A stretch of DNA of 64,000 nucleotides from Myxococcales bacterium (GCA_020633315.1 JACKDV010000004.1:384071-448070), one strand, 5' to 3'; shown: positions 1,471 to 31,750, counted from the stretch's first letter. Notes: a model not told the origin generated them from the sequence alone. Made by a program: numbers and translations.

Positions 1471-2076
1471 ATGCGATTCTCCGAAGCCCTCCGAGAGCAG
1501 CGATGGGACGACCATCGCTTCTACCACCACAGCCGGATCAACCAGTCGCTGCACATGCTCAGCGCCTGCTGCTTCTTGGCCTCCTACGTGATGATCTTCG
1601 TCGATCCGGTCGTGGCCGTGATGCTCGGCTGGACCCTCGCGATGATCTCACGACAGATCGGGCACTTCTTCTTCGAGCCGAAGGGCTACGACGAGGTCAA
1701 CGGAGCGACGCACGAGCACAAGGAGGCCATCAAGGTGGGCTACAACCTGCGCCGCAAGACGATGCTGCTGTCGGTCTGGGGCCTGAGCCTGATCGCGCTG
1801 GTGCTCGACCCCACCCTGCTCGGCCTACTGCCGGCGCCGACCTCCACCTACGCCTTCCTCACCAACCTCTCCATCCTGTGGGCCATGGTGGCCGCGGGGG
1901 CGATGGTGGTCCGCACCGTGCACCTGTTCTTCCTCCAGGGCGTACAGGCGGGCCTGGTGTGGTTCGTGAAGATCCTGACCGATCCGTTCCACGACCTGAA
2001 GATCTACTACAAGTCGCCGCTCCACCTGCTGCGCGGCGAGAAGCTCGATCCGATGGAGCCCTGGCCCGCGGCGTAG
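1471..2076 (+). CDS. Mpo1-like (DUF962) small membrane protein, putative Fe(II)-dependent dioxygenase family.
   Basis: N-terminal 'FYHHSRINQSLH' His cluster followed by 3-4 hydrophobic helices, as in the DUF962/Mpo1 family. Sits 55 nt after the aminotransferase stop. High GC3. Confidence 0.55.
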   Translation: MRFSEALREQRWDDHRFYHHSRINQSLHMLSACCFLASYVMIFVDPVVAVMLGWTLAMISRQIGHFFFEPKGYDEVNGATHEHKEAIKVGYNLRRKTMLLSVWGLSLIALVLDPTLLGLLPAPTSTYAFLTNLSILWAMVAAGAMVVRTVHLFFLQGVQAGLVWFVKILTDPFHDLKIYYKSPLHLLRGEKLDPMEPWPAA

Positions 2077-2092: not shown

Positions 2093-3178
2093 TCACTTGC
2101 AGGTCTCGTCGCGCGGCGGGCACTTGAAGCGCACGTGGATGTGGTCGTCGTGCTTGGGCACGTGCTGCACCAGGCGCTCCTTGGCGTACTTGCCGTCGGG
2201 ATACTGGAAGATCGGCTTGAGGGCGGCGCGCGAGAGGCCGGACTTGCGCGCGACCTCGTAGAGCTTCCCTTGCAGCTCGTAGTCCAGGAAGATCCGCTCC
2301 GGTCCGCTCGAGGTCTTCGACGCCTTCACCAGCGCATGCACCAGCGTCCAGGTGGCCCCGGCATCGAGCTCGCCGTCGCGCGCCTTGACGAACTCCTCGG
2401 GGTAGCCCGGCGGCACCTTGCGGAAGTAGAGGCCGAGGTCCACGTCGCGGCCGCTCTGGTGCGAGCCGTGCCCGGGCAGGGTGCCGCCGCTGGCCGCCGA
2501 GATGTCACCGATGGCCAGGCGGTGCACCCCGGGGTGCGTGCGGTTGACCTCGGCGATCGCCCGACGCACGTGGTCGATCACGTGCTGGGCTCCCCACACC
2601 CAGTCGGGTCGGCGCCGGTAGTACTGCGGGCTGTGCGGGAGCTTGGCTCCATCGACCAGCGTGCCGCGCTGGGGACGCCCACGGCTCTGCCCCGCCACCA
2701 CGTGGATGGAGATCTCCTCGGTCCCGCCGCCGATCCGCAGGCGCTGTCCCGGGAGGATCACGTCGCCCGTCAGCTCGTTGAGCGCACGGAGCTCCGACAC
2801 CGTGGTGTGATGCTGGGCCGCGATGCCCGAGAGGGTGTCGCCGGCCTTCACCACGTGCTCCAGCGCCTTGGCCGGGGCCTTGCCCTTGGCCTTGCCCGAG
2901 CAGCGGGGAATCTGGAGCCGCGTGCCCACCAGCAGGGGACCCTCGTCCAGCCCGTTGGCCCGGCGCAGATCGTCCACGCGGCAGCCGTGCTCGTGAGCGA
3001 TGCTCCACAGGGAATCGCCTGAGACCACGGTGTAACGAGCGCCCCCGCGGGGGCCGGCCTGGGCCGGCGAGGCGCCGAGGACCAGCATGCCCAGGGCGAG
3101 GCCGGCGAGCAGGCCATCCCCGCGAACAGCGCGAGCTCGGTTCGGCATACGCGTCACCATCGTGGCGAGTCTCTGCAT
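2093..3178 (-). CDS. mepA: Secreted LysM-domain murein endopeptidase: two LysM repeats plus a MepA-like peptidase M74 domain.
   Basis: Signal peptide 'MPNRARAV..LGASPAQAG'. Two LysM units ('YTVVSGDSLWSIA..', 'HVVKAGDTLSGIA..'). C-terminal 'GHGSHQSGRDVDLGLYF' and 'HDDHIHVRFKCP' match the MepA metal-binding motifs ('HDYHFHVRLKCP' in E. coli). The track's 844-aa ORF is over-extended and was trimmed to Met at 3178. Confidence 0.8.
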   Translation of the reverse strand: MQRLATMVTRMPNRARAVRGDGLLAGLALGMLVLGASPAQAGPRGGARYTVVSGDSLWSIAHEHGCRVDDLRRANGLDEGPLLVGTRLQIPRCSGKAKGKAPAKALEHVVKAGDTLSGIAAQHHTTVSELRALNELTGDVILPGQRLRIGGGTEEISIHVVAGQSRGRPQRGTLVDGAKLPHSPQYYRRRPDWVWGAQHVIDHVRRAIAEVNRTHPGVHRLAIGDISAASGGTLPGHGSHQSGRDVDLGLYFRKVPPGYPEEFVKARDGELDAGATWTLVHALVKASKTSSGPERIFLDYELQGKLYEVARKSGLSRAALKPIFQYPDGKYAKERLVQHVPKHDDHIHVRFKCPPRDETCK

Positions 3179-7496: not shown

Positions 7497-8429
7497 ATGA
7501 CGATCTCGATTCCCCCGGCCGACATGCTCCTGTTCGCCACCGTGGTGCGCGAGGGCAGCTTCACCCGCGCCGCGCAGCAGCTGGGCGTGACCAAGCAGAC
7601 CGTCAGCGAGCGCATCGCTCGGCTGGAGGAGCGACTGGGAGTGCGGCTGCTCGAGCGCACCACCCGGCGCCTGCGTCCCACCGAGCCGGGCACGCTGTAC
7701 TACGAGCGCTGCTCGGCCATCGCCGTGCAGATCGACGAGGCCAACGCGGAGGTGCGGCGCCGCCAGGCCGAGCCGGTGGGGAGCCTGCGCGTGTCTGCCC
7801 CGGTGCTCTACGGCCGGCGCTACCTCGCGCCGGTGGTGGCCGAGTTCCTGTGCGCGCACCCCAAGACCCGGGTGGAGCTGCTGCTCGCCGACCGCCGCGT
7901 GGACCTCATCGAGGAGGGCTTCGACGTGGCCATCCGCATCGGCACGATGGACGACTCCTCGCTGACGGCGCGCAAGCTCGGCGAGGGCCACGTGTACTGC
8001 GTGGCGAGCCCGGGCTTCCTGGCCGAGCACGGCCGCCCCACCCTCCGCTCGCTGCGTGGGCTCCGCTGCGTGGGGCTCCGGCCCGTCGAGACCTGGGAGC
8101 TCGGCGGCACCCGGCACAAGATGGAGCCGGTGCTGGTGGTCAACGACTTCGAGGTGGCCTGCGACGCCGCGATCGCGGGCGTGGGCGTGGCGCTGCTGCC
8201 CTCGATCGTGTGCCGCCACGCGGTGGCCGACGGCCGGCTACGGGTGGTGCTCGGTCCGCAGCCGGCGTTCGTGCTCCCCGTGGTCGCGCTCTACCCGAGC
8301 CGCCGGCACCTCCCGGCCAAGGTCCGCCTGTTCGTCGATGCGCTCGCGACCATGATCGAGCCGATGCAGCCGCTCGGCCTCCGACCGGCCGCCTCGCGCC
8401 GCCGCTCGAGCAAGCGGGCCCCTCGCTAG
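7497..8429 (+). CDS. LysR-family transcriptional regulator.
   Basis: N-terminal wHTH 'LLFATVVREGSFTRAAQQLGVTKQTVSERIARLEERLGVRLLER' plus a LysR substrate-binding domain. Divergent from its likely target operon. Confidence 0.85.
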   Translation: MTISIPPADMLLFATVVREGSFTRAAQQLGVTKQTVSERIARLEERLGVRLLERTTRRLRPTEPGTLYYERCSAIAVQIDEANAEVRRRQAEPVGSLRVSAPVLYGRRYLAPVVAEFLCAHPKTRVELLLADRRVDLIEEGFDVAIRIGTMDDSSLTARKLGEGHVYCVASPGFLAEHGRPTLRSLRGLRCVGLRPVETWELGGTRHKMEPVLVVNDFEVACDAAIAGVGVALLPSIVCRHAVADGRLRVVLGPQPAFVLPVVALYPSRRHLPAKVRLFVDALATMIEPMQPLGLRPAASRRRSSKRAPR

Positions 8430-8755
8430 GGCCCGGCCTCGCGGGCGCGGCTCATCGCGCCCAGGGCCGCCTCCCACTCGTCCTGCCCGCCGGCGATCCG
8501 GGTCAGCGAGCGCTCGAGCGCCGCCGCGGCCTCGCCCACCTCCACGTAGCCATACGAGCCCGCGGTGCCGGCCAGGCGGTGGGCGGCTCCCACCGCCTCC
8601 GCCAGCACTCCCGCGCTGGGCTCTTGGTGGGCCCGCTCCACCAGCCCCGAGAGCTCTCCCAGCCGGTCGCGCAGTCGCTCGGCGAAGCGCTCGCGCAGCA
8701 TCCCCAGCTTGGCCCGGGCTCGATCTCGTTCGTCGCCGTACCCCACCACGTTCAT
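8426..8755 (-). CDS. Stand-alone Hpt (histidine phosphotransfer) domain protein.
   Basis: 'AAHRLAGTAGSYGY' matches the Hpt 'HxLKGsaxxxG' motif. An 'agggag' RBS lies 7 nt upstream. The start codon overlaps the receiver gene's stop (ATGA). Confidence 0.7.
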   Translation of the reverse strand: MNVVGYGDERDRARAKLGMLRERFAERLRDRLGELSGLVERAHQEPSAGVLAEAVGAAHRLAGTAGSYGYVEVGEAAAALERSLTRIAGGQDEWEAALGAMSRAREAGP

Positions 8756-9135
8756 CTCGTTCTCCCTGCGATCGCACGCAGCTCGTCCGCGAGGGCCATG
8801 GGGTCGAAGGGCTTGGCGATCACTCCGATCGCCCCCAGATCCAGGTAGCGCTGGATCTCCTGCCGCTGCACCTTGGCCGTCACGAACACCACTGGAATCG
8901 CCGAGCTCGCCTCCTGCTCGCGCAGCCGCCGAAAGGTGGTGGGCCCGTCCATGTGCGGCATCATCACGTCGAGCAGGATCACGTCGGGTCGCTCGCGGGC
9001 CGCGACCTCCAGCGCCTGCTCACCGCTCGCGGCCAGCACCACCTGCAGCCCCCCCACGTCGCGGAGCGCCATCTCTCCGATCACGCGGATGTCCTCGTCG
9101 TCGTCGACGAGCAGGACCGTGCGAATCTCGGTCAT
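8752..9135 (-). CDS. Single-domain response regulator (CheY-like receiver).
   Basis: 'VLLVDDDEDIR', 'ILLDVMMPHMDG', 'PVVFVTAK'. A GGAGG RBS lies directly upstream of the ATG at 9135. Confidence 0.8.
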   Translation of the reverse strand: MTEIRTVLLVDDDEDIRVIGEMALRDVGGLQVVLAASGEQALEVAARERPDVILLDVMMPHMDGPTTFRRLREQEASSAIPVVFVTAKVQRQEIQRYLDLGAIGVIAKPFDPMALADELRAIAGRTR

Positions 9136-9272
9136 CCTCCCGCCTCCACTGCAGCATCCGGGCCAAGTAGGGTATCCCGGACCATTCGCCGCCGCATCGA
9201 GCCCTCCGTCCACCAGCGGTGTGGGTCATCCCGCAACACCGGGGAACTATGCCCCAGCCCGTGGCACGATGC

Positions 9273-10643
<1,371 letters not shown>

Positions 10644-10780
10644 CGGCTCAGCTCCTCCCCGAGGGTGCTGGGGGTCATACCACGGCCGAGCCGGGGTTGC
10701 CCCGGCGTCGGTTCTCAAATGGCCTCGCCCGCTGTAGCCTTGGGCCACGACGGGCTCCGTCGCGATTCACCCCAGCTCCC

Positions 10781-11833
10781 ATGACAGCCATGCTCGCGGT
10801 CATCACCTCCTTCGCCGTCCAGCTCGGCACGCAAGGGCTCGTCGCGATCGCTCCACCCGAGGATCCGGCCGTACCCGCCGGCACCGTAACGACCGATCCT
10901 GCCTCCGGCGGCAGCACGGAGATCGCCGGCCAGGGCAAGTTCGCCGCGGCCGATCTCGAGGCCACCGAGAGCGAGGACGCGACCGAGCTCGAGATCTCCA
11001 CCGGCGGCCTGATGTCCACCGGCAACGCCTTCGCGGCCGCCGTCACCGCCCAGGGTCGCTTCCGCCTGCGCCGCGGCATCCACCAGGTGGGCGCCCAGGT
11101 GGCGGGCAACTACGGCATCGCCGACACCAACGTCGAGCGCGTCATGTACCGCATCCCCGCCGCGGCCCCGGGCCAGGTGGTGGCCATCGACGACCTCATC
11201 GAGGAGCGCTCGTCGAGCATCGAGCGTCAGACCACCGTGGCCAACGTGCAGGCCATGGCCCGCTACGACGCGTTCTTCGCCAAGCGCTGGTCGGCCTTCC
11301 TCATGGCCACCGCCCGCCACGATCGCTTCCAGGGCCTCGACCTGCGCTTCAACCTCGACCCCGGCTTCGCCTTCCACGCCCTCACCAACGCGCGCCACCG
11401 CCTGTGGCTCGAGGCCGGCTACGACTTCCAGTACGACATCCGCCGCGAGGACGCGGTGTTCGAGGAGCAGGTGGTCGACCCCCCCGTGCCCGACCCCGAC
11501 GTGGTCACCCCGGCCGGAGAGCTGGCCGTGGCCGACACCGCGCGGGTGCGGATCGCCGACGACACCCTGGTCAACCACGCCGCGCGCCTGTTCCTGGGCT
11601 ACAACAACTCGCTGAGCGACCGCGTCACCTTCGACACCGGCCTCGAGTACCTGCAGAGCGTGATCAAGGGCTCGCGCTTCCGCATCAACTGGGTCAACGC
11701 GCTCACCATCCAGCTCGGCGGGCGCTTCGGGGTGGGAGCAACCTTCACCCTGCGCTACGAGAACGAGCCGCTCCCCGGCGTGGCCAAGCTCGACACGATC
11801 ACCGCGATCCTGCTGACCATGCGCTTCATCTAG
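10781..11833 (+). CDS. DUF481-family outer-membrane protein.
   Basis: Signal-like N-terminus, beta-strand-rich alternating pattern, C-terminal '...LTMRFI' aromatic end typical of outer-membrane barrels. Resembles the salt-induced YdiY/DUF481 family. An alternative ATG lies at 10787. Confidence 0.55.
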   Translation: MTAMLAVITSFAVQLGTQGLVAIAPPEDPAVPAGTVTTDPASGGSTEIAGQGKFAAADLEATESEDATELEISTGGLMSTGNAFAAAVTAQGRFRLRRGIHQVGAQVAGNYGIADTNVERVMYRIPAAAPGQVVAIDDLIEERSSSIERQTTVANVQAMARYDAFFAKRWSAFLMATARHDRFQGLDLRFNLDPGFAFHALTNARHRLWLEAGYDFQYDIRREDAVFEEQVVDPPVPDPDVVTPAGELAVADTARVRIADDTLVNHAARLFLGYNNSLSDRVTFDTGLEYLQSVIKGSRFRINWVNALTIQLGGRFGVGATFTLRYENEPLPGVAKLDTITAILLTMRFI

Positions 11834-11839
11834 GGCGCC

Positions 11840-13624
11840 ATGGTCGACGGCCACCCCCTGCAGCCGCTGCTCGACGCCCTCACCACCCGCGCCGCGCTGG
11901 TGGACGCCGACGGCACCCTGCAGGCGACCAACAAGGCGTGGCGACGGGCCAGCGGGCACCCCCTGGCCGGTCCCGCCCTGGGCCCCGGCACCGACTACCT
12001 GCGGGTGCTGGGCGCGGCGGGGGGTCCCATGCGGGTCGACGGCCTGCGCCTGGCCTCGGCGCTGTCGCGGGTGCTCGACGGCGCCACCGAGGCCATCGGC
12101 CACACCTACCGCTACGGGCCCGCCAACCACGTGCAGTGGTGCCGCACCTCGCTGTGCCCCATCGAGGGCCGGCCCCGCTCGGTGGCCGTGCTGCACGAGG
12201 ACATCACCGACCAGGTCCACACCCAGGCCGCGCTCAAGCGCAGCCAGGCCCGGCTGCGCACCATCCTCACCGGTGCCCCCATCGTGCTGTTCTCGCTCGA
12301 CCGCAGCGGCACCTTCACCGTGGTGGAGGGCATGGGCGGCGCGGGCACGGGCTTCGTCACCGAGGACCTCGTGGGCAGCTCCGTGCACGAGGCCTACCGC
12401 CACATGCCCGACCTGCTCGAGGTGATCGACGACGCCCTGCGCGGGCGGGTGGGGGTGATCACCCAGTCGGTGGGGCACCTGGCCTTCGAGATCCGCTGCT
12501 CGCCCATCTACCGCCGCGACCGCGTGGACGGGGTGGTGGGCGTGGCCACCGACGTGACCGAGCGCCTCCACGCCCAGCGCATGAAGGACGAGTTCGTCTC
12601 GATCGTCAGCCACGAGCTGCGCACCCCCCTGACCTCGATCCGCGGCTCGCTGGGGCTCATCGAGGGCGGGGTGGCGGGGGAGCTGCCCGCCAAGGCCCGC
12701 GAGCTGGTCCGCATCGCTCGCTCCAACACCGACCGCCTGGTGCGGCTCATCAATGACATCCTCGACCTCGACAAGATGGAGGCGGGGCGGGTCATCCTGC
12801 AGCGCGAGCCGCTGGACGCCTGGGCGGTGGTCGACGAGGTGATCGGCCAGATGCACGGCTACGCCGAGCAGGCCTCGGTGAGCGTGGAAGAGGCGGGCCG
12901 GGTCCCCGACTGCCCGCCCGTGCACGCCGACCACGATCGCCTGGTCCAGATCCTCACCAACCTGCTGTCCAATGCGATCAAGTTCTCCCCCGAGGGCGGC
13001 CGGGTGGAGGTGAAGGTCACCCAGCGGCAGGGCCGGCTGCGCTTCTCGGTCACCGACCACGGCCCCGGCATCGCCCCCGCCGACGTGCCCCGGCTCTTCC
13101 AGAAATTCCACCAGCTCGACGCCTCGGACACCCGGGCCCGCGGGGGCAGCGGGCTGGGCCTGGTGATCGCCAAGTCGCTGGTCGAGGCGCACCACGGGCA
13201 GATCGGGGTGGACTCGCAGCTGGGCCAGGGCTCTACCTTCTTCTTCGAGATCCCGATCGCCCACGTCACCATCCGCGAGATCCCGGGCCCGCGGCAATCG
13301 CACTCGCCGGCGGTGGCGCTCGATCCCCAGGCCATCGTGGCCCCCCAGCTCCGCGGGGCCGAAGGGCTGCTCGTCGAGCTCGAGGCCCACCTGCGCGACG
13401 CGGCGGGCTCCGACGACCTCGAGGCCCTGGCCGACGCGCAGGCGACGGCGCAGATCCTGGGGGCCACGCTGCCGCCCGACGCCCCCGCCGAGCTGCTGGC
13501 CATGGTCTCCCAGCTCGCCCGCTCGCTCGACGAGGCGCTCCAGCGCGCCAGCCCGCCCAATGCGGCCGGCTGGGCCCACCTGCACCGCGAGCTCGAGCGA
13601 ATCCGCGAGGGCCTGGGCTCCTGA
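11840..13624 (+). CDS. PAS-domain sensor histidine kinase with a C-terminal ~120-aa helical extension.
   Basis: H-box 'SIVSHELRTPLTSI'. N/G boxes 'LLSNAIKFS', 'DHGPGI', 'GSGLGL'. Two PAS-like regions upstream. Confidence 0.85.
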   Translation: MVDGHPLQPLLDALTTRAALVDADGTLQATNKAWRRASGHPLAGPALGPGTDYLRVLGAAGGPMRVDGLRLASALSRVLDGATEAIGHTYRYGPANHVQWCRTSLCPIEGRPRSVAVLHEDITDQVHTQAALKRSQARLRTILTGAPIVLFSLDRSGTFTVVEGMGGAGTGFVTEDLVGSSVHEAYRHMPDLLEVIDDALRGRVGVITQSVGHLAFEIRCSPIYRRDRVDGVVGVATDVTERLHAQRMKDEFVSIVSHELRTPLTSIRGSLGLIEGGVAGELPAKARELVRIARSNTDRLVRLINDILDLDKMEAGRVILQREPLDAWAVVDEVIGQMHGYAEQASVSVEEAGRVPDCPPVHADHDRLVQILTNLLSNAIKFSPEGGRVEVKVTQRQGRLRFSVTDHGPGIAPADVPRLFQKFHQLDASDTRARGGSGLGLVIAKSLVEAHHGQIGVDSQLGQGSTFFFEIPIAHVTIREIPGPRQSHSPAVALDPQAIVAPQLRGAEGLLVELEAHLRDAAGSDDLEALADAQATAQILGATLPPDAPAELLAMVSQLARSLDEALQRASPPNAAGWAHLHRELERIREGLGS

Positions 13625-13750
13625 GGGCGGGTCGCGGCAAAGCGCCCCACCCTCCCATCCCGCCCCGGCCGCCGTGCCGGTTCTCCGCCACGGCGCGCGC
13701 AAGAGGCGGTTAGGATTGGCGCGGTCGCTGCAAGGCGCCCCCTCGGTCCC

Positions 13751-15508
13751 GTGGCTCGCTCCCCCCACGACTCGGTCCGCTTCCCGCTCCGCATCAAGCT
13801 CGCGATCTTCGCGGGCTTGCTGCTGGTCGCGCACATCGTGGCGGTGGGCTGGGCCGCGCTGCGGCTGACCTCGGCCTCGGTGGAGCGCGCCCAGCTCGAG
13901 CTGCAGATCGCGATCATCGAGGCGCTGTCGCGCGACATCGAGGCCGAGCTGGCCCAGGCCCACGACGGCCTCGATGCGATCGGCCGGGCCGCCGTCGACG
14001 AGAGCCTCGAGATGGACGCCCGGCTGTCGCTGGCCGAGGTGCTGGTCGAGAGCAACGAGGTGCTGGACAACACCCTGCTGTACACGGCCCAGGGCACCGA
14101 GCCCGTGCCGATCGTCGAGGCCAGCGCCTCGAGCCTGGCCTGGCCCGACCCCCTGCCCGCCTCGCTGCGAGAGCAATCGGTCGCGCAGGGGGTGGCCACC
14201 GGCGCGGCGGTGGCCAGCGACCACGGACCCCGGGTGCTGGTGGTGATGCCGATCCGCTTCGAGCACGAGGTGACCGGCTACGCCGCGAGCCTGGTGCCGC
14301 TGGCCGGGATCCAGCACCGCGTGGAGGAGATGGCGGCCGGCTACTTCGCGGGCATGCCCGATGCCCTGCTGGTGGTGGACGACCAGTTCCGGCTGCTCGC
14401 CCACCCCGACCCAGAGCGCGCGCTGGGCTCGGCCGCCGACGAACCCATCCTCGCCGGCATCGATCCCTCGGCCCTCGGGGCCCGCTTCTCGTCGTCGGGC
14501 GAGTTCACCCGCCCCGACGGCCACGCGGTGGTGGGCACCGTGGTCGGCCTCGACTCGCGGCCGTGGGCCATCGTGGCGCAGGTGCCCACCGAGATCGCCT
14601 TCGCCCCCATCGTGGCCATGCGCAAGGTGGTGGTGGGCACCGTGGTGGTGGCGGTGGTGGTGGCCCTGATCGCCGCCATCCTGCTCGCGCGGAGGATCAC
14701 CTCGCCCCTGGTGCAGCTGTCGCGCTTCGCCACCGACATCGCCCAGCGCAAGTTCGACGCGCGGGTCCACATCCACACCTCGGACGAGCTGGCGGTGGTG
14801 GGCGAGGCGATGAGCCAGGCCGCGGCCGACCTCGAGAACAGCGAGCACCGCATCCGTGAGGAGCTCGAGATCCGCTCCGACCTCGGGCGCTACCTGCCCG
14901 CCGAGCTGGTCGACAAGGTGGTGCGCCGCGAGCAGGACATGGAGCTCGGCGGCGTGCGCCAGGAGATCACCGTGATGTTCGCCGACGTCGTGGAGTTCAC
15001 GCCGCTGGCCGAGAAGCTGCCCCCCGAGCAGGTCGTCCAGATCCTCAACGAGCTGTTCACCATCGTCACCGAGATCGTGTTCCGCCACCGCGGGACCGTG
15101 GACAAGTTCGTGGGCGACTGCGTCATGGCCCTCTGGGGGGCGCCGACGCAGATCGAGGACCACGCCACGCTCGCCCTCGAGGCGGCGGAGGAGATCGTGT
15201 CATGGCTGGAGGCCGGGAACGAGACATGGGAGAAGAAGTACGGGGTGACGGTCCGGATCGCGATCGGGATCAACTCGGGGGAGGCGGTGGTGGGCAACGT
15301 CGGCTCACGCTCGAGGATGGAGTACACGGCGATCGGGACCACGGTGAACGTGGCGGCACGCCTCGAAGCCATCGCGAGACCGCAGCAGATCTTGATCTCG
15401 GAGCAGACGGCCCGACGAGCGGGGGAGGGATTCCAGCTCAGCCCGGTGGGCGAGCGTACGATCGCCGGGCACTCGGAGCCACTACGGCTGTACGAGGTGG
15501 TGACCTGA
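13751..15508 (+). CDS. Class III adenylate/guanylate cyclase with a periplasmic sensor, TM helix and HAMP domain.
   Basis: TM 'LAIFAGLLLVAHIVAVGW', a second TM 'VVVGTVVVAVVVALIAAILLA' followed by HAMP. Cyclase motifs 'VMFADVVEFTPL', 'KFVGDCVMALWGAP', 'IGINSGEAVVGNVG'. GTG start. Confidence 0.85.
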   Translation: MARSPHDSVRFPLRIKLAIFAGLLLVAHIVAVGWAALRLTSASVERAQLELQIAIIEALSRDIEAELAQAHDGLDAIGRAAVDESLEMDARLSLAEVLVESNEVLDNTLLYTAQGTEPVPIVEASASSLAWPDPLPASLREQSVAQGVATGAAVASDHGPRVLVVMPIRFEHEVTGYAASLVPLAGIQHRVEEMAAGYFAGMPDALLVVDDQFRLLAHPDPERALGSAADEPILAGIDPSALGARFSSSGEFTRPDGHAVVGTVVGLDSRPWAIVAQVPTEIAFAPIVAMRKVVVGTVVVAVVVALIAAILLARRITSPLVQLSRFATDIAQRKFDARVHIHTSDELAVVGEAMSQAAADLENSEHRIREELEIRSDLGRYLPAELVDKVVRREQDMELGGVRQEITVMFADVVEFTPLAEKLPPEQVVQILNELFTIVTEIVFRHRGTVDKFVGDCVMALWGAPTQIEDHATLALEAAEEIVSWLEAGNETWEKKYGVTVRIAIGINSGEAVVGNVGSRSRMEYTAIGTTVNVAARLEAIARPQQILISEQTARRAGEGFQLSPVGERTIAGHSEPLRLYEVVT

Positions 15509-15519
15509 GCACGCAGTGC

Positions 15520-16848
15520 ATGGCCCACGAGCTGCGCCCCGGCATGGTCATCGGCGAGCGCTACGTGATCACCGGCAAGCTCGGCGAGGGCGGCATGGGG
15601 CAGGTGTACCGCGCCACCCAGCAGAACCTCCGCCGCGAGGTGGCGCTCAAGCTGCTCGACTCCGGGGTGCTCGACGTGGCCACCGGGCACCGTCGCTTCC
15701 TGCGGGAGGCCCGGGTGGCGGCGGCCCTGCGGCACCCCCACGCGGTGGAGATCTACGACGTGGGCACCGACGGCTCCCACGTGTTCATCGCGATGGAGCT
15801 GCTCAGCGGCGAGGTGCTGCGCGACCTGCTGGAGCGGGTCGGCTGCCTGCCGCTGGACGAGGCGATCGACCTGACGCTGCAGGTCGCCGACCTGCTGGTG
15901 GCCGCCCACGCGATGCCGCTCATCCACCGCGACCTCAAGCCCGAGAACATCTTCGTGGAGGAGGATCGCGACGGGCACCTGCGCGCCCGCGTGATGGACT
16001 TCGGCCTCGCCTTCATCGAGGGCGGCGACGAGACGGGGCGGCTGACCAAGGAGGGCCTGGTGGTGGGCACCCCGGCCTTCCTCTCGCCCGAGCAGGCACA
16101 GGGCGGGCACGTGGGGCCGCCCTCCGACATCTACTCGCTGGGCTGCGTGCTCTACGAGATGCTCACCGGCCAGACCGTGTTCCGCGGCAGCCAGATGAAC
16201 ATCCTCACCCAGCACATCTACGTGGCCCCGACCTCGCTGCGCGAGCGGGTGCCCGACGCGGGCTTCCCCGCCGACCTCGACGATCTGGTGATGCGCATGC
16301 TGGCCAAGCGCCCCGCGGATCGACCCTCGGCCGAGGCGCTGATGGAGGAGCTGCACCTGGTGCAGGGCACCCTGGCCGGGCAGCGTCACCGCGGACGCGA
16401 CGATCGCCTGCTCGGCACCCGGCGCCACCGCATGATCTCGGTGCCCGCCCACCCCCCGCCCAAGATCGACCAGGAGGCGGTCGAGCAGGCCGCCCCCGAG
16501 CTCGAGGGCTTCCAGGTGGGGGTGCAGGGCGAGTTCCCCGACGAGCTGTGGTTCGGCATGGCGAGCAACGGCCTGTACGCCGAGCGCCTCGAGCCGGGGC
16601 AGGACCCCCGCGGGGCGCTGTGCGACGCGGTGCTGACCAACACCGACGACCCCCGGCGACTCTCCGAGCTGGCCGCCACCGGCGTGCCGGTGATCGTGGC
16701 CACCAACGCACGCGCCGACGAGCTCGCCGAGCTGCTGCGGCTGGGGGTCAACGAGGTGTTGGCCCCGCCCCTGGAGGCCGACGTGGTCGCCCGCAAGATC
16801 CGGCGCGCCGTGGAGCGCAGCCGCCGACGGATGAGGAGGAGACGATGA
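15520..16848 (+). CDS. Ser/Thr protein kinase (Hanks-type) with a C-terminal degenerate receiver-like domain.
   Basis: 'GKLGEGGMGQVYRA', 'VALK', 'HRDLKPENI', 'DFGLA', 'GTPAFLSPE'. The C-terminal ~110 aa resemble the alpha4-beta5-alpha5 half of a REC domain but lack an acidic pocket. Starts 12 nt after the cyclase stop. Confidence 0.85.
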   Translation: MAHELRPGMVIGERYVITGKLGEGGMGQVYRATQQNLRREVALKLLDSGVLDVATGHRRFLREARVAAALRHPHAVEIYDVGTDGSHVFIAMELLSGEVLRDLLERVGCLPLDEAIDLTLQVADLLVAAHAMPLIHRDLKPENIFVEEDRDGHLRARVMDFGLAFIEGGDETGRLTKEGLVVGTPAFLSPEQAQGGHVGPPSDIYSLGCVLYEMLTGQTVFRGSQMNILTQHIYVAPTSLRERVPDAGFPADLDDLVMRMLAKRPADRPSAEALMEELHLVQGTLAGQRHRGRDDRLLGTRRHRMISVPAHPPPKIDQEAVEQAAPELEGFQVGVQGEFPDELWFGMASNGLYAERLEPGQDPRGALCDAVLTNTDDPRRLSELAATGVPVIVATNARADELAELLRLGVNEVLAPPLEADVVARKIRRAVERSRRRMRRRR

Positions 16849-18074
16849 GCATCTGGATGTCCACCGCTGTGGCGGCCGCGGCTGCGGCCGTGGCCGCGCC
16901 CGAGCCGGCGCCCCCGGTCGAGACCATCGAGTACACGATCCGCAAGGGAGACACCTGCGCCAAGATCGCGACCGAGCGCTACGGCGACCGCAAGCACTTC
17001 GAGGTGATCCACCAGTACAACCGCTGGCTGGGACCCACGATGCCGCACCACCTCGAGGAGGGGCAGGTGCTGATCCTGCCCAAGACCCTGCCCCCCGAGC
17101 TGCCCGACGCCGAGGTCACCGCGGCGCGGCGCAAGGTGGAGGCCCGACCGCCCGAGGCCGCCCAGTGGAGCAGCGCCCGCCCGGGCCTCGACCTCTACCG
17201 CGGCTGGCGGGTCAACACGCAGGAGCGTGCCTCGGCCGAGATCACCTTCCGCGACTACTCCCGGATCGAGATGCGGGAGAACACCCTGGTGATCATCTAC
17301 GGGGGCTCGCGCAGCCGCAGCCGGCGCGAGACCACCGAGGCCACCCTCGATCGCGGGGCCCTGCGCGCGCGCCTGGGCGCCTACACGGGCAAGACCAGCG
17401 AGAGCGAGGTGACGGTGACCACCCCCTCGGCAGTGGCCGAGCTCGAGGGCGGCACCAGCCTCGTCACCGTCGACGACGGGGGCACCAGCCGGGTGGCCAA
17501 CCATGGCGACGGCAAGGCGAAGGTGGGCTCGTCGACCGGAGGCGGGGCCAAGGTGAAGGTGGGCCCCAAGATGGGCTCCAAGGTGGTCAAGGGCGAGCGG
17601 CCCTCCGCCGCGCGTCCGCTGCCGCCCACGCCGGTGTGGAGCGGACGCATGGCGACCACCTTCGTCGCCGCCGGCGGGCGGGGGACCATCCGCGGGAGCT
17701 GGGCGCCGGCGGAGAAGGCCGCGCGCTATCGGGTGGAGATCGCCAGCCAGCCCGACGGTCGCGAGCTGGTGGCCAGCCAGACCGTGCCGGCCACGATCAA
17801 CCGCTTCGAGGCCCAGGGCCTGCCTGCGGGCGACTACTACGTGAGCGTGGCGGCGATCGACGACGACGACTTCGAGAGCCCGCCCTCCGATCACCGCAAG
17901 CTCAGCCTGGTCTCGGTGCCCCTGCTCACCCCCGGCGGCGCGCCGCTGCCCGAGCCCGACGCCGCCGCCGAGCCCAGCACCACGCCCTCCCGCGTGCTGC
18001 GGGGCACCCGGCTCGACTTCCGCTGGGCCTGCGCTGCCGCGTGGACGCGGGCGAGCCCTCGCGCCAGCCGGTGA
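16845..18074 (+). CDS. LysM + FecR-like + FN3-like envelope protein. Appears interrupted by a frameshift at ~18024-18040 and probably continues into the next feature.
   Basis: ATG overlaps the kinase stop (ATGA). LysM 'YTIRKGDTCAKIA..GQVLILP'. An FN3-like 'RYRVEIASQPDGRE..GDYYVSVAAID'. The frame ends in a junk-like tail 'ACAAAWTRASPRASR'. Confidence 0.55.
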   Translation: MSIWMSTAVAAAAAAVAAPEPAPPVETIEYTIRKGDTCAKIATERYGDRKHFEVIHQYNRWLGPTMPHHLEEGQVLILPKTLPPELPDAEVTAARRKVEARPPEAAQWSSARPGLDLYRGWRVNTQERASAEITFRDYSRIEMRENTLVIIYGGSRSRSRRETTEATLDRGALRARLGAYTGKTSESEVTVTTPSAVAELEGGTSLVTVDDGGTSRVANHGDGKAKVGSSTGGGAKVKVGPKMGSKVVKGERPSAARPLPPTPVWSGRMATTFVAAGGRGTIRGSWAPAEKAARYRVEIASQPDGRELVASQTVPATINRFEAQGLPAGDYYVSVAAIDDDDFESPPSDHRKLSLVSVPLLTPGGAPLPEPDAAAEPSTTPSRVLRGTRLDFRWACAAAWTRASPRASR

Positions 18075-19057
18075 TCGACTCCACCGGCGAGCACACCGTG
18101 GCCTGCGTCACCGACGACGGCGTGGAGGTGCCCGGCTTCACCGTGCTCGCCATCGACGTCCAGATCGCCGCGGCCCGGGCCGAGGGCGCGATGCGGGGCG
18201 TGACCAGCGAGGCCAGCTTCACCCTCGACGCATCGATCCCGCTGCCCCGTCGCGTGTGGGTGGAGGCTCCCGCGGGCTTCTTGGTCGACACCCCCCGCGC
18301 TGGCGCGACGCCGGGGCAGTGGACGGTGTCGGTGCACCCCGACCAGGACGCCCCCGCCGAGGCCTCGCTGCGGGTGATGGCCGAGGCCGGCGGCACCGAG
18401 GTGGAGCTCGGTGAGATCCCGGTGGCGGTGGCCGAGCCGTCCTCGACGAGCCCCGTCACGCCCGAGACGAGCCCCGAGCCGCGCGGGCCCGAGCGGCACA
18501 TGTTCGAGCTGGGCGTGTGGGGCGGGGTGATGCTCCCCTCCTCCAATCACGACCTGTTCCAGGAGCGCTTCTCCAACGTCCCAGGGATCACGCTGGTGGA
18601 GCACCAGGCCCTGCGCCGCGCCGCGCCCGATCTCGGCATCCGCCTGGGCTACTACCCGATCCGCTGGGTGGGCGTGGAGCTCGAGCATGCGCTGGTCCCC
18701 ACCCGCACCCGCGACACCGGCGACCGGGCCACCGTCTTCGCCATCCGCGGGCAGGTGCTGGGGCAGCTCCCCTGGCGGGTGACCCCCACCGTGCACCTCG
18801 GCGGGGGTGCGCTGGGCGTGAGCGCCGGGCAGGTGCTCGGCCGCGACATCGATCGGGCGCTGCACTTCGGCGTGGGGGTGAAGGCCTACCTGGTCCGCTG
18901 GGCCGCGCTGCGCCTCGATCTGCGCGACGTGATCACCGAGGGTCACTCGGGCGGGGCCGCGCACTCCCCCGAGATCCTCGTGGGCGTGGCCGGCGTGATC
19001 GGCCGCCGCAGCGCAGCATCGCCCACCGGTCGCCGCCTGCGACCAGCCCGGCCGTAG
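18041..19057 (+). CDS. Ig-like domain + 8-strand OmpA-like beta-barrel. Probably the C-terminal continuation of 16845..18074, in the -1 frame.
   Basis: No signal peptide of its own. Its frame is open back to 17165. The beta-barrel 'HMFELGVWGGVMLPS...LRLDLRDVI...HSPEILVGV' is paralogous to the N-terminus of the downstream OmpA. Confidence 0.45.
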   Translation: MDAGEPSRQPVIDSTGEHTVACVTDDGVEVPGFTVLAIDVQIAAARAEGAMRGVTSEASFTLDASIPLPRRVWVEAPAGFLVDTPRAGATPGQWTVSVHPDQDAPAEASLRVMAEAGGTEVELGEIPVAVAEPSSTSPVTPETSPEPRGPERHMFELGVWGGVMLPSSNHDLFQERFSNVPGITLVEHQALRRAAPDLGIRLGYYPIRWVGVELEHALVPTRTRDTGDRATVFAIRGQVLGQLPWRVTPTVHLGGGALGVSAGQVLGRDIDRALHFGVGVKAYLVRWAALRLDLRDVITEGHSGGAAHSPEILVGVAGVIGRRSAASPTGRRLRPARP

Positions 19058-19136: not shown

Positions 19137-20615
19137 ATGCTCCGCGCCTCGCTCCCCTTCGCGTCGGCTCTCCTGCTCGCCCTGGCCTCGGTCCCCGCCG
19201 CGGCCAAGGAACCCGCCGCCTCGGGCGACGCCGAGGCCGAGGCCGAGGTCTCGCTGGGCAAGGGAGGCCGCGAGGCGAAGGCCGAGCGACGCGCTCGCGG
19301 CGAGCCGGGCACGCGCAGCGATCGACCCTGGGCCAAGCGCTGGGCCCCCGAGGATCACCAGGTGGAGGTGGGCCTGTACGGCGGCGTGTTCCTGCCCTCG
19401 CGCCGCCTCGAGCTGTTCCAGGCCGACTTCTCGCTGGTGGACCAGGGCTACAAGCCCTTCGCCCGCGTGGCGCCCGACTTCGGCGTGCGCGTGGGCTACT
19501 ACCCGCTACGCTTCTTCGGCATCGAGGGCGAGGGCGGAGCGATGCCCTCGCGCACCACCACCGGCGACGCCGCCCTGATGTGGACGGCCCGGGCCAACCT
19601 CGTGGGTCAGCTCGGCCTGTGGAGCGTGACGCCCTTCGTGCTCGTGGGCGGCGGGCTGATCGGCGTGGCCAGCGATCGCAGCTCGGTGGGCAACGACGTC
19701 GACGCCTCGGCCCACGTGGGCGTGGGTGCGAAGGTGTTCCTCAGCCGCTACACCGCGCTGCGCCTCGACCTGCGCGACGTGATCGCGGCCCGACGCGGCT
19801 ACCACGAGGGCGTGGTGCACTCGCCCGAGATCCTGCTCGGCCTGAGCATCACCCTCGGCCGCGCCCGCGACGAGGCCCCGCCCCCGCCCCCCGACTCCGA
19901 CGGCGACGGCATCCTCGACCCCGACGACGCGTGCAAGGACGAGCCCGGCGTCCCCGACTACCGCGGCTGCCCCATCCCCGACTCCGACGGCGACGGCGTC
20001 CTCGACCCCGACGACGAGTGCAAGGACGAGCCCGGCGTCCCCGACTACCACGGCTGCCCCATCCCCGACTCCGACGGCGACGGCGTCCTCGACCCCGACG
20101 ACGAGTGCAAGGACGAGCCCGGCGTCCCCGACTACCGCGGCTGCCCCATCCCCGACTCCGACGGCGACGGCATCCTCGATCCCGACGACGCGTGCAAGGA
20201 CGAGCCCGAGACCAACAACGGCTTCCAGGACACCGACGGCTGCCCCGACGAGATCCCCGAGGAGGTCGCTCGCTTCACCGGGGTGATCGAGGGCATCTTC
20301 TTCGAGAACGACAGCGCCACCATCCGCCCGCGCTCGCGGCCCACCCTCGACAAGGCGCTCGAGGTGCTGCGCAAGCACGAGTCGGTGCGGGTGGAGGTCA
20401 GCGGCCACACCGACGATCGCGGCAAGCCCGAGCACAACCTCGAGCTCAGCCGCCGCCGCGCCGAGTCGGTCAAGCAGTACCTGGTGGAGGAGGGGATCGA
20501 CCCCGCCCGCATCACCACGCGCGGCGCGGGGCCCAGCGAGCCCATCGCCGACAACGGCAACAAGCGGGGCCGCGCCAAGAACCGGCGCATCGAGTTCAAG
20601 CTGCTCACCGAGTAG
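19137..20615 (+). CDS. OmpA-family outer-membrane protein: N-terminal 8-strand beta-barrel, 4 thrombospondin type-3 Asp-rich repeats, C-terminal OmpA domain.
   Basis: Signal 'LLLALASVPAAA'. TSP3 repeats 'PIPDSDGDGVLDPDDECKDEPGVPDY'. OmpA motifs 'VEVSGHTDDRG', 'NLELSRRRAESV', 'NRRIEFKL'. Confidence 0.9.
   Translation: MLRASLPFASALLLALASVPAAAKEPAASGDAEAEAEVSLGKGGREAKAERRARGEPGTRSDRPWAKRWAPEDHQVEVGLYGGVFLPSRRLELFQADFSLVDQGYKPFARVAPDFGVRVGYYPLRFFGIEGEGGAMPSRTTTGDAALMWTARANLVGQLGLWSVTPFVLVGGGLIGVASDRSSVGNDVDASAHVGVGAKVFLSRYTALRLDLRDVIAARRGYHEGVVHSPEILLGLSITLGRARDEAPPPPPDSDGDGILDPDDACKDEPGVPDYRGCPIPDSDGDGVLDPDDECKDEPGVPDYHGCPIPDSDGDGVLDPDDECKDEPGVPDYRGCPIPDSDGDGILDPDDACKDEPETNNGFQDTDGCPDEIPEEVARFTGVIEGIFFENDSATIRPRSRPTLDKALEVLRKHESVRVEVSGHTDDRGKPEHNLELSRRRAESVKQYLVEEGIDPARITTRGAGPSEPIADNGNKRGRAKNRRIEFKLLTE
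19891..20238 (+). repeat. Near-identical 87-bp direct tandem repeat x4 (encodes the 29-aa TSP3 units).
   Basis: 'cccgactccgacggcgacggc(a/g)tcctcgaccccgacgacg(c/a)gtgcaaggacgagcccggcgtccccgactacc(g/a)cggctgccccatc' recurs at 19891, 19978, 20065 and 20152, with only a few substitutions until the fourth copy diverges after ~60 nt. Confidence 0.8.
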
Positions 20616-20936
20616 CGCGATCGCGCCGCGGATTGCCGCGCTCCACGCTCCGTTGCGGGTGAGCAGATCACGCGCCGAAGCTTCGGTAGATCGCCTCGCG
20701 ATTGAGCAATGGCAGCCACGCCGACCCGCACCGATCCCCACAAAAACCCCAGCGAGCAGCCGTGAGCCAGTCAGAGTGTGCGGCACACTGCGTTTTGTGC
20801 TTGCACAAAGGGTACGAAGGACCGCACGATCGAGCCGTCCGGCCTCCCAGGGATGTGCATCTTGCGCACACGGGAGTCCCTTCGGGGTCACCGGCACTGC
20901 CCATGCCACAGGCCAGCGACCCCGCCACGAATTACA

Positions 20937-21130
20937 GCGCGACCGTGGTCACCGCTCGGGTCACATTTGGGGGCGACCCGGGCGGTGGCCCCTTTTCGAC
21001 CCCTTTCCTCGGGGTCAGTGCCGACTTCCCTCGCGTCAGCTAGAGTTACTGCGACCGAGGTCGCCGCTCGGACCTATTTTTGGGGGCGGTCCGGGCGGCG
21101 GCCGCTTTTTCGTCGGCCGCCGCGACCTCG
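20937..21130. repeat. Two copies of a ~55-60-nt GC-rich structured intergenic element between convergent OmpA genes.
   Basis: Copy A 'gcgaccgtggtcaccgctcgggtcacatttgggggcgacccgggcggtggcc'. Copy B 'gcgaccgaggtcgccgctcggacctatttttgggggcggtccgggcggcggcc'. Both hold 'gacc-N3-ggtc' and 'ccg-ct-cgg' mini-palindromes. Copy B is followed by a 9-bp-stem hairpin 'cggcggccg-ctttttcgt-cggccgccg'. Confidence 0.4.
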
Positions 21131-21132: not shown

Positions 21133-22671
21133 TCACTGCACCTTGAACTCGATGCGTCGGTTCTTGGCGCGACCGGACTTGGTCTTGTTGTCCGCGATCG
21201 GCTCGTCGGGCCCGGCCCCACGCGTGCTGATCCGATTGTCGGCCACGCCCTTGTCGACCAGGTACTGCTTGACCGACTCGGCACGCCGGCGGCTGAGGTC
21301 CATGTTGTCGTCGCGGCTGCCCACGTCGTCGGTGTGGCCGCTGATCTCCACCCGCACCGAGTCGTACTTGACCAGCACGCTGGCCACCTTGTCGAGCTTG
21401 CGCTTGGAGGTCTTGCGGATCGTGTCCTTGCCGGTGGCGAACTCGATGCCCTCGAGCACGCCCTCGAACTGGGTGATCTCGGCGGGGAGCTCGTCGGGGC
21501 AGCCGTCGGTGTCCTCGAAGCCGTTGTAGTTCTCGGGCTTGTCCTCGCACGCGTCGTCCACATCGAGGATGCCGTCGCCGTCCTTGTCGGGGACCGGGCA
21601 GCCGTCGGCCCCGTCGCCCCACTCGTTGGGGCAGGCGTCGCTGCGATCGGGCACGCCGTCGTTGTCGGAGTCGCGGTTGAGCGGGCAGCCGTCCTCGTCC
21701 TCGCCGTACTCGTCGGGACACTCGTCGTAGTAGTCGGCGATCGTGTCGCCGTCGCGATCGCTCCGCTTGGCTCGCCACTCCTCGCCGATCCACTTGGTGA
21801 GGCGGATGTTCACCTCGGCCCCCACCAGCAGCTCGCCGTGGTGGGCCCGGTTGCCGTCGATGCTCGAGCCGGTGACGATGTGGCGCCCGTCGATGCGGAC
21901 GGCGATCCAGTCGTTGATGTAGAACTTGGCCCCGGGGCCCCAGTGGAACGCCGGGTCGCCGCCGTTGAGGATGGCGGCGTCCTTGGACTTGAGCGCCAGC
22001 AGGCCGCCGCCCACGGCCAGGGTGGGCGTGAGGCGGTAGGGCAGCGAGCCGATCACGTGGCCCCGCACCGCATAGAAGGTGCCCTTGGCCCCGCCCGGCA
22101 CGCTGTCGCTCGAGGTGGGCATGATCGACGACTCGAAGCCCACGCCCACGTAGGGGATCACCATGTACTCGAGGTGGAAGCCGAAGTCGAAGTTGCCGCG
22201 CCGGATGCTGGGCTGCGGACCCTCGGAGCGGTCGAACAGGCCGTGGTTGTTCGCGCGCCAGAAGCCACCGAGGTGGAAGCCCGCGTTGATCATGTGGTTG
22301 GTGGGCCTATAGCGCTCGAAGAACGGACGCTCGTCCTTCTCCTTGGGCTTCTTGTCGCCCTTGTCCTTCTTGCTGCGCTTGGCCTTGCCCTTCGCCTTGC
22401 CCTTGCCGCCGCCGCCGAGGCTCACCGAGCCGCTGGCCGAGCCCGAGGCCGACGCCCCGGGGGCCTCCTCCTCGTCCTCGCCCTCGAGCGGATCGTCGTA
22501 CTCCTCCTCGGCATCGCTGCCCTCGAGATCGTCGTACTCGTCGTCCTCGATGATCTCGTCGTCCTCCTCGGGCTGGGCGTGGGCGAGCTCGGGGATCGCG
22601 ACCAGGCCCAGGCCCAGGGCGAGCGCCAGCACGCGGGAGGAATCGGACGAGCGAGGAGGCGTGTGCGTCAT
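21133..22671 (-). CDS. OmpA-family outer-membrane protein with an acidic linker, Lys-rich segment, beta-barrel, TSP3 repeats and C-terminal OmpA domain.
   Basis: Signal 'VLALALGLGLVAIPELAHA'. 'DRDGDTIADYYDECPDE', 'DSDNDGVPDRSDACP', 'DKDGDGILDVDDACED'. OmpA 'VEISGHTDDVG', 'NMDLSRRRAESV', 'NRRIEFKV'. Confidence 0.85.
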   Translation of the reverse strand: MTHTPPRSSDSSRVLALALGLGLVAIPELAHAQPEEDDEIIEDDEYDDLEGSDAEEEYDDPLEGEDEEEAPGASASGSASGSVSLGGGGKGKAKGKAKRSKKDKGDKKPKEKDERPFFERYRPTNHMINAGFHLGGFWRANNHGLFDRSEGPQPSIRRGNFDFGFHLEYMVIPYVGVGFESSIMPTSSDSVPGGAKGTFYAVRGHVIGSLPYRLTPTLAVGGGLLALKSKDAAILNGGDPAFHWGPGAKFYINDWIAVRIDGRHIVTGSSIDGNRAHHGELLVGAEVNIRLTKWIGEEWRAKRSDRDGDTIADYYDECPDEYGEDEDGCPLNRDSDNDGVPDRSDACPNEWGDGADGCPVPDKDGDGILDVDDACEDKPENYNGFEDTDGCPDELPAEITQFEGVLEGIEFATGKDTIRKTSKRKLDKVASVLVKYDSVRVEISGHTDDVGSRDDNMDLSRRRAESVKQYLVDKGVADNRISTRGAGPDEPIADNKTKSGRAKNRRIEFKVQ

Positions 22672-22841
22672 GAGGTGGCTCCGAGAGACGTCGACGCTGG
22701 GCACACCGGAGTGTCGGGGCTTTGCCCCCCGTCTCGGCCGTGCACCTACATCGTCACGCTACACGGCTCGTCCGTCACCGGTCAATCCCGCTCGGACGCC
22801 GATGGGCCCGCGAGCCCATGCCCCGGCTCGCCCCGACGGTG

Positions 22842-27161: not shown

Positions 27162-27234
27162 CGTATTGCGCACCTTAGCCGGGGCCGGCCGAGCTGACCA
27201 GCCGGGGGCCGGCTGCTATAGTCCCCGGCGACCC

Positions 27235-31543: not shown

Positions 31544-31750
31544 GCCCACCAGATACCAGAGGTCCGCCTCCGTCGTGACACCGCCTCGGTTGCGTCCGCA
31601 CACATCACGCGCTCGATCCAGTCGAGGACCTTCGCGCGCTCCTCGGCGGGCCGCCCCGGACGCAGGCGAACCTCGATTCGGGGCCCTGGTGGCGGAGGAA
31701 GGGTTGGCCCGATGACACGGGCGGGGCCCGGGTCGGTCGCGCCCCCGAGC

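Follow-up and report, generated by a model that had tools for sequence, protein, structure and literature searches.

A conserved signalling island of Nannocystales that likely joins a split phosphorelay to a cyclase, kinase and envelope-protein trio

The stretch of DNA considered here, a window of 64,000 nucleotides from a Myxococcales bacterium (GCA_020633315.1 JACKDV010000004.1:384071-448070), harbours from position 8426 onwards an island of signalling genes, in which a histidine kinase (HK), a single-domain receiver (REC), a stand-alone Hpt protein and an NtrC-type sigma-54 activator sit beside an adenylate cyclase (AC), a Hanks-type Ser/Thr kinase (STK) and several proteins of the cell envelope. 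The island proves to be a genuine sensory unit, conserved and linked both to sigma-54 and to the envelope, and involves no unprecedented chemistry. Because the relay and the trio formed by AC, STK and a LysM-FecR-barrel protein are found apart in other genomes, it can be understood as two modules joined together, and comparison of the loci makes it likely that we are witnessing a lineage-specific junction of two conserved signalling modules, which took place in one Nannocystales lineage. As for its operation, we propose, in a reading that we hold to be evenly balanced between right and wrong, that a split HK-REC-Hpt-activator relay switches on the AC-STK-FecR(-OmpA) genes via sigma-54.

Layout of the island and its conservation

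With a G+C content of about 72%, raw lists of open reading frames (ORFs) are unreliable in this window, and genes were therefore called via the phase of their third-position GC (GC3), protein domains being assigned with Pfam and NCBIfam scans against curated cut-offs. The domains that an earlier note, made from the sequence alone, had placed in this region were confirmed by these scans. The features are the following, in the order of the window:

8426-8755, minus strand: stand-alone Hpt protein, 109 aa (PF01627)
8752-9135, minus strand: single-domain receiver (REC), 127 aa (PF00072)
9150-9165, minus strand: sigma-54 promoter-like site TGGCCCGGATGCTGCA, of the -24/-12 type, upstream of REC-Hpt
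9241-9255, minus strand: imperfect dyad GGGGCATAGTTCCCC, candidate activator site, some 84 nt ahead of the -24 element
9273-10643, minus strand: NtrC-type sigma-54 activator, REC-Sigma54_activat-AAA_lid-HTH_8 (Pfam)
10712-10743, plus strand: sigma-70-like promoter TTCTCA-N17-TAGCCT ahead of DUF481-HK, read by eye, of low confidence
10781-11833, plus strand: DUF481 predicted outer-membrane protein (PF04338)
11840-13624, plus strand: soluble PAS-PAS-HisKA-HATPase HK, with tail residues 490-594 at 13307-13621
13634-13648, plus strand: weak dyad-like element GCGGCAAAGCGCCCC, some 77 nt ahead of the promoter-like site of AC
13717-13732, plus strand: sigma-54 promoter-like site TGGCGCGGTCGCTGCA, of the -24/-12 type, upstream of the cyclase gene
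13751-15508, plus strand: membrane class III AC, with a transmembrane (TM) segment, a Cache-like domain, a second TM segment, HAMP and the cyclase domain
15520-16848, plus strand: soluble Hanks-type STK, with a pseudo-receiver tail at about 16492-16845
16845-19057, plus strand: gene of a LysM-FecR-(Ig-like)-beta-barrel outer-membrane protein, in frames 16845-18074 and about 18021-19057
19137-20615, plus strand: OmpA-family protein, with barrel, TSP3-like repeats and OmpA_C (PF00691 and PF13505)

Direct reading of the sequence bears out the ATGA said to be common to the REC stop and the Hpt start, and reveals another one common to the STK stop and the LysM-FecR start. The two divergent operons, taken to be tightly packed, are not uniformly so: there are gaps of 137 bp (activator/REC) and of 126 bp (HK/AC), each with one sigma-54 promoter-like site. 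In the window, AC and STK are separated by 11 nt, with no stop/start overlap.

Conservation of this neighbourhood, which had been suggested as a check, was found at two depths, the gene order being kept in loci L001, L007 and L097, and the AC-STK-FecR core in much more distant genomes. A scan of species genomes with AC peptide patterns, too specific for this purpose, yielded one true relative (L001), and an alignment-based scan of metagenomes with cyclase-domain patterns returned mostly generic cyclases, with six orthologous loci out of 80. In all, both AC and STK orthologues are visible in 18 loci, the window included, 17 of which are informative for the activator. The two genes are adjacent in every one of the 18, with overlapping stop and start codons in most relatives, and a LysM-FecR gene adjoins them in 13, including loci from Polyangiaceae (L012, where identity to the window is 51% for AC, 41% for STK and 45% for FecR) and Sandaracinaceae (L009, L095). 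The whole order, kept in L001, L007 and L097, is largely kept in L010 and L011 as well, and it is in these five loci and the window, all of the Nannocystales type, and in them only, that HK, REC, Hpt, a REC-type activator and DUF481 accompany the trio. Enhygromyxa salina (E. salina) illustrates how the parts may live separately: its locus L096 has divergent activator and HK orthologues, followed by a fused REC-Hpt gene, with no AC trio within 10 kb, and it is on a second contig that AC and STK are found together, behind another activator of the REC type (L098). Strain ST9 has AC and STK as an isolated pair (L093). Elsewhere, in L008, L012, L015 and L095, an FHA-Sigma54_activat protein stands beside the trio, often with an extra mini-kinase. 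A sigma-54 activator is thus present in the fetched flank of 11 of the 17 informative loci, six times as the REC type of the window, once as another REC type (L098) and four times as the FHA type. The FHA-type and REC-type activators share 39-45% identity, mainly in the AAA+ core; that they are the same gene with a swapped domain was considered and is not shown, identity in this core being uninformative.

The nearest named relative is Paraliomyxa miuraensis (77% identity for AC, 66% for HK, 65% for STK), and the other orthologues come under the labels Nannocystaceae, Enhygromyxa, Sandaracinaceae, Polyangiaceae or Polyangiales. Among the best 120 matches of any search there is no Myxococcus-type organism, nor, among the best 120 of the AC search and of the STK search, a Cystobacterineae orthologue of either protein.

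The sigma-54 promoter-like sites and the relay proteins

A scan for TGGCACG-N4-TTGCW, in which GG and GC were fixed and at most two mismatches accepted, found six sites in the 64-kb window, and two of these, at 9165-9150(-) and 13717-13732(+), with two mismatches each, lie on the correct strand in the island's only sizeable intergenic gaps. The site ahead of REC-Hpt has an exact positional counterpart in each of L001, L010, L011 and L097, and one with three mismatches in L007; that ahead of AC is kept in L001 and L007, within a spacer that has otherwise diverged. HK overlaps AC in L010, L011 and L097, and the second promoter-like site precedes DUF481 instead; there, the whole DUF481-HK-AC-STK-FecR string would be a sigma-54 unit. 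All six window-type loci have promoter-like sites ahead of REC-Hpt as well as ahead of AC or DUF481, and no such site was found upstream of AC in the FHA-type or activator-less loci. L012 has a site with a single mismatch upstream of its DUF481-MscS genes, and L098 has sigma-54-like sites right behind its activator gene and where the gene preceding AC begins. Upstream of several of these promoters, at a distance of 58-121 nt, we noticed an imperfect dyad, GnGGCA-N3-yKCCCC, which is a candidate binding site for the activator. The sigma-70-like element ahead of DUF481-HK, read by eye, is conserved as TTCAAA-N17-TA(G/C)CCT in L001 and L007; the consensus scanner did not call this promoter. The remaining four sites of the window scan, again with two mismatches each, are located at 1504-1519(+), 5054-5039(-), 51930-51945(+) and 56126-56141(+).

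The proteins that would feed these promoters have the residues expected of a phosphorelay. The Hpt protein reaches 35.2 bits against PF01627 (cut-off 24.6, E 1.5e-8), and its profile matches CheA P1 in the PDB; in its motif, AHRLAGTAGSYG, of the H-x-x-(K)-G-like kind, the predicted phospho-acceptor His59 is invariant in five orthologues, the Lys of the helix-2 motif being replaced by Ala. The single-domain REC (99.2 bits against PF00072, E 2e-28) has a complete pocket (VDDDED / LLDVMMP / VTAK / AKPF), and the activator opens with a receiver of 91.5 bits against the same family (VDDDAD / LADINLP / MTAF / TKPL), followed by PF00158 (241 bits), PF25601 and PF02954. Its loop reads GAFTDA, a variant of GAFTGA common to the aligned Nannocystales orthologues, and its identity is 87% to L001 and L007 and 65% to L096 of E. 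salina. In the Pfam scan this receiver is the sole input of the activator, with no FHA, GAF or cyclic-nucleotide-binding domain, and the protein falls below all NCBIfam equivalog cut-offs (AtoC, 455.6 against 714; NtrC, TIGR01818, 433 against 558.6; LuxO, 387.6 against 800; ZraR, 400.8 against 760). According to the same scan the HK is not hybrid, and some 115 residues at its C-terminus have no Pfam or NCBIfam assignment. That these proteins form a single, split relay is suggested by the co-inheritance of the four genes and by the fusion of REC to Hpt in E. salina.

The extra helical tail of the HK, already noticed but left unassigned, is indeed present (residues about 490-594) and appears, in the structural model, to be Hpt-like in fold: a four-helix bundle with a predicted local distance difference test (pLDDT) score of 88. 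The best-conserved polar position of its helix 2 is His in 41, Gln in 28 and Glu in 4 of 76 orthologues. The window and its clade have Gln, and from its sequence the position is predicted to be unable to receive a phosphoryl group in this organism. Profile comparison of the tail with the Hpt of the locus was weak (7.9%, then 26.6% probability) and the alignment sets the conserved His/Gln one helical turn off the Hpt His; a search of the tail against PDB sequence profiles gave no match. The resemblance to a bona fide Hpt domain is one of predicted fold alone.

The trio and its envelope neighbours

The cyclase (PF00211, 101.7 bits) has a HAMP domain at its cut-off and a weak dCache_1 domain in Pfam, the latter sub-threshold in the window, yet recurring in the orthologues. 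Class III cyclases rely on two metal-binding Asp residues, on an adenine-specifying Lys with Asp or Thr, and on Asn and Arg residues that stabilize the transition state. D412, K452, D456, R522, T526 and N533 do not vary among 30 orthologues, and R537 hardly does. By this alignment the enzyme retains its catalytic residues and the Lys/Thr pair of adenine specificity, and it is a predicted producer of cAMP.

The kinase (PF00069, 168.7 bits) has all its motifs intact (GEGGMG22, VALK41, HRDLKPEN136, DFG160, SPE189). Its C-terminus had been described as a degenerate receiver, and so it appears to be. The tail is present in all lineages, FHA-type loci included; its profile matches receivers in the PDB, with RssB (E 1.6e-5) ahead of PleD, CpxR and CpaE, and an AlphaFold2 model built with 32 orthologues (pLDDT 94.6) displays the CheY-like beta-alpha pattern without helix alpha-2. 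In eight orthologues none of the acidic pair, the acceptor Asp, the Thr/Ser or the Lys is conserved, and an invariant Gly takes the place of the first acidic residue. A receiver fold without conserved pocket residues makes this tail a pseudo-receiver. It constitutes a small family, as an exhaustive search among 1.84 billion representatives retrieved 64 clusters only, mostly of proteins of about 440 aa. Together with the tail of the HK, it may be a degenerate phosphotransfer domain re-used as an interaction module. The L010 orthologue of the kinase (11749-13296) has a PPVEP repeat, five times over, inserted in a loop of the pseudo-receiver.

The envelope neighbours recognized at the outset, LysM-FecR-barrel, OmpA and DUF481, have proved to be constant companions. 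For the first of these, the FecR part of the proposed architecture stands above its cut-off (PF04773, 33.8 bits against 24); LysM is weak and sub-threshold in the window, recurring nevertheless in the orthologues, and what is a single ORF of 722-766 aa in the relatives L001 and L007 is split in the window by the deletion of one nucleotide. This deletion, visible in the DNA alignment with L001 at about 18012-18023, in a short C run (CTCGAC-TTCCGC versus CTGGACGTCCCGC), separates an N-terminal part with a signal peptide from a barrel part devoid of one, and is either a sequencing error or the mark of a pseudogene. A comparable frameshift is found in the activator gene of the metagenome-assembled locus L011. 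The LysM-FecR architecture is retained in six orthologues, the FecR domain of L009 (21.1 bits) being under the cut-off of 24, and in L011 and L097 the protein carries OmpA_C as a further, fused domain. Its barrel and that of OmpA are paralogous, with 41-43% identity. A second barrel-TSP3-OmpA paralogue, at 21133-22704(-), convergent with the first and kept in L001 and L007, makes three consecutive genes with the same type of small outer-membrane barrel. DUF481 (PF04338, 86.8 bits, cut-off 21.1) is a recurrent neighbour in L007, L010, L011, L012, L094, L096 and L097, and DUF481 outer-membrane proteins and MscS channels recur nearby in L008, L012, L094 and L096. Another gene directed at peptidoglycan, some 5 kb from the island at 2093-3088(-), encodes a pair of LysM domains together with a Peptidase_M74 domain (a MepA-like murein endopeptidase).

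Between the convergent OmpA genes, at 20926-21002 and 21040-21115(+), lie two tandem units of about 76 nt, nearly invariant in the window, L001 and L007, each with a hairpin of 16 bp and, after it, a T run, the changes between units being compensatory and preserving the pairing. A sigma-54 promoter with one mismatch is found about 100 nt upstream in L001 (16970-16985) and L007 (17192-17207), and the homologous site of the window (20850-20866) has an altered spacing. The hairpins have no Rfam match, and a covariance model found no other copy in 15 sources. Qrr and Pxr are small RNAs (sRNAs); the hairpins may form an activator-dependent sRNA of that kind, or an unusually conserved double terminator. 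At an analogous position in E. salina, between the OmpA and activator genes (L096, 7830-8470(-)), four tandem units of about 125-165 nt, without obvious sequence similarity to those of the window, each contain CTGGGATGAGCTTCGCA (GG-N10-GC), then a GGCCCCC-TAGAA-GGGGGC hairpin and a T run.

Further downstream, the window contains a 1031-aa fusion of an MFS transporter to spermine synthase (24078-27173(-)), which has been kept next to the island in L007 and L010 too. It also encodes a small protein with a VHL beta domain typical of eukaryotes (29253-29834(-); PF01847, E 2.6e-9), whose gene adjoins that of a multi-Kelch beta-propeller (29960-31603(-)).

Proposed operation, rival explanations and known systems

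We may now take these elements as a starting point to understand how the island would work. The cytoplasmic PAS-PAS kinase would autophosphorylate and pass its phosphoryl group to the single-domain REC, then to His59 of Hpt and finally to the receiver of the activator, which would bind the upstream dyads and remodel the sigma-54 RNA polymerase at two local promoters. The promoter ahead of REC-Hpt would create a positive feedback, and that ahead of AC would drive an output operon made of AC, STK, LysM-FecR-barrel and perhaps OmpA. An outer-membrane-anchored, peptidoglycan-binding LysM-FecR protein, with the OmpA paralogues, would face the periplasmic Cache domain of AC, an envelope-spanning assembly that is suggested by the homology of the FecR and OmpA barrels and by the FecR-OmpA fusions of two genomes; the soluble Hanks kinase, with its non-phosphorylatable receiver-fold tail, would be co-translated with envelope proteins. 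We infer the direction of phosphotransfer, the use of these promoters by the activator and all the contacts between envelope proteins. Our best guess for the signal is the envelope, peptidoglycan or osmotic state of the cell, in view of the DUF481 outer-membrane proteins and MscS channels that recur nearby; a module for cell-envelope stress or development, as suggested earlier, would be of the same conjectural kind.

Several observations weigh against this proposal of a relay controlling the trio. A derived pattern, TGGCNCGN5TGCA, matches only the two island sites in the 64-kb window (0.26 expected) and only orthologous positions in the other loci, yet it was refined after the sites had been seen, which makes the window statistic partly circular. 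The predicted transcription starts would leave a leader of about 4-9 nt before the annotated starts of REC and AC. The dyad pattern, post hoc as well, is weak, with three hits in the window against 1.06 expected, and has no exact match in L097. Control by sigma-54 is not universal, as six AC-STK loci have no activator in the available flank. Neither a cAMP receptor or cAMP-binding protein, nor a substrate of the kinase, nor a sigma-54 gene (rpoN), nor a phosphatase was found in about the first 37.5 kb of the window. The FecR gene is frameshifted, and the module may therefore be impaired in this organism unless we are dealing with a sequencing error. Finally, the HK could phosphorylate the activator directly.

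This last possibility, by which the HK would act on the activator receiver as NtrB does on NtrC, with REC-Hpt serving as a sink for phosphate or linking to other kinases, deserves discussion, rather unlikely as we find it. The HK is not hybrid and forms a divergent pair with the activator in every Nannocystales locus, that of E. salina included, and REC-Hpt, placed behind its own sigma-54 promoter, would be made only once the activator is active. It would nevertheless leave a stand-alone Hpt without a relay role, and we know of no role for such a protein outside receiver-to-receiver relays. REC-Hpt is moreover strictly co-inherited with HK and activator (seven loci of seven); E. salina has it as one protein, encoded immediately after the HK, and a comparable layout is known for luxO-luxU (PMC5394107).

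The earlier note had seen three chemistries, those of AC, STK and the phosphorelay, converging as parallel inputs on the activator, with a regulon located elsewhere. This picture is not supported in that form for the window and appears improbable to us, since the activator has receiver input only and the conserved -24/-12 sites place AC-STK-FecR, together with REC-Hpt, downstream of it. It has some substance in the four sister loci where the activator carries FHA, a domain that binds phospho-Thr, often with an extra mini-kinase: there, a kinase acting upon the activator would fit, and only for those sister lineages is kinase input to a sigma-54 activator plausible. The limited resemblance of the two types of activators, discussed above, argues against carrying this over to the window. 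One might also suppose that these genes are neighbours without shared function, conserved through mere relatedness in myxobacterial genomes rich in kinases, cyclases and sigma-54 genes. The full order of ten genes is indeed restricted to fairly close relatives (48-87% protein identity), the flanking spermine-synthase fusion gene is syntenic too, and the modules are apart in E. salina and strain ST9. This is nonetheless the explanation that we find most doubtful, as AC-STK-FecR persists at 40-50% identity, with overlapping stop and start codons, in changing surroundings; as FecR-OmpA and REC-Hpt gene fusions exist; as the pseudo-receiver tail belongs to so small a family; and as promoter motifs are kept inside diverged spacers.

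Beyond the relay itself, we would tentatively entertain a broader idea, possible rather than probable: AC-STK(pseudo-receiver)-LysM/FecR-barrel would be an undescribed, Polyangia-wide trans-envelope sensor, in which a FecR-type protein, located in the outer membrane and bound to peptidoglycan, reports the state of the envelope to the Cache-HAMP AC and its partner kinase. Beside this trio, the activator would have been repeatedly rewired, with an FHA input in Polyangiaceae and Sandaracinaceae and with phospho-Asp delivered via a split relay in Nannocystales, where the Hpt domain of the relay kinase would be decaying. The consequence for the study of these organisms is worth emphasizing. Of the hundreds of kinases, cyclases and sigma-54 activators that myxobacteria encode, few have been assigned to pathways, and almost none outside Myxococcus xanthus. 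The locus provides a testable circuit, with defined promoters, relay and output operon, and a conserved envelope module of three genes, for none of which a representative has been studied. The presence of FHA or receiver activators beside the same trio is, besides, a natural experiment in which Ser/Thr and His-Asp signalling substitute for each other at sigma-54 promoters. The gene order had been suspected not to be that of a known pathway, and in agreement with this neither the AC-STK-LysM/FecR trio nor the island turned up in our literature searches.

Its components can nonetheless be compared with familiar systems. FHA-domain sigma-54 activators coupled to Ser/Thr kinases were reportedly described in Myxococcus xanthus by Jelsbak et al. 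in 2005; they match the sister loci L008, L012, L015 and L095, whereas the activator of the window has a receiver and not FHA. The relay recalls the LuxN/LuxQ/CqsS-LuxU-LuxO system of Vibrio by its Hpt gene beside a same-strand NtrC-type activator (PMC5394107, PMC2680268), by its multi-step His-Asp-His-Asp logic and by its sigma-54 output. It differs by a kinase that is cytoplasmic and non-hybrid, by a separate receiver and by predicted targets that are adjoining protein-coding operons, not Qrr sRNAs; the activator, below the LuxO cut-off, is not a LuxO orthologue. With NtrB-NtrC the island shares a soluble PAS kinase, a REC-AAA+-Fis-HTH activator, a -24/-12 promoter and a candidate upstream dyad, and departs from it by its extra REC and Hpt, by the Hpt-like tail of the HK and by a neighbourhood with no nitrogen-assimilation genes.

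The trio has parallels of its own. Its periplasmic FecR domain (PF04773), above the cut-off, is reminiscent of FecR/FecA/FecI, but the protein of the window lacks the cytoplasmic anti-sigma domain and the inner-membrane helix, having a signal peptide, LysM and a C-terminal outer-membrane barrel instead, and there is no extracytoplasmic function (ECF) sigma factor or TonB-dependent transducer among the scanned neighbours of its gene. The kinase tail resembles the pseudo-receivers of PleD (D2), CpaE/TadZ (N-terminal domain) and FrzS, being a CheY-like fold without a functional phosphorylation pocket; unlike them, it is the C-terminal part of a Hanks kinase, has no helix alpha-2 when modelled and constitutes a small family of its own. 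As for the cyclase, CyaA and CyaB of M. xanthus are HAMP-containing, receptor-type class III adenylate cyclases which act as osmosensors, and AC has the same layout, in which two TM segments enclose a periplasmic sensor and are followed by HAMP and by a class III domain where Lys and Thr would specify adenine. What sets the family described here apart from CyaA and CyaB is that its AC always has the pseudo-receiver kinase directly downstream, with stop and start codons overlapping in most loci.

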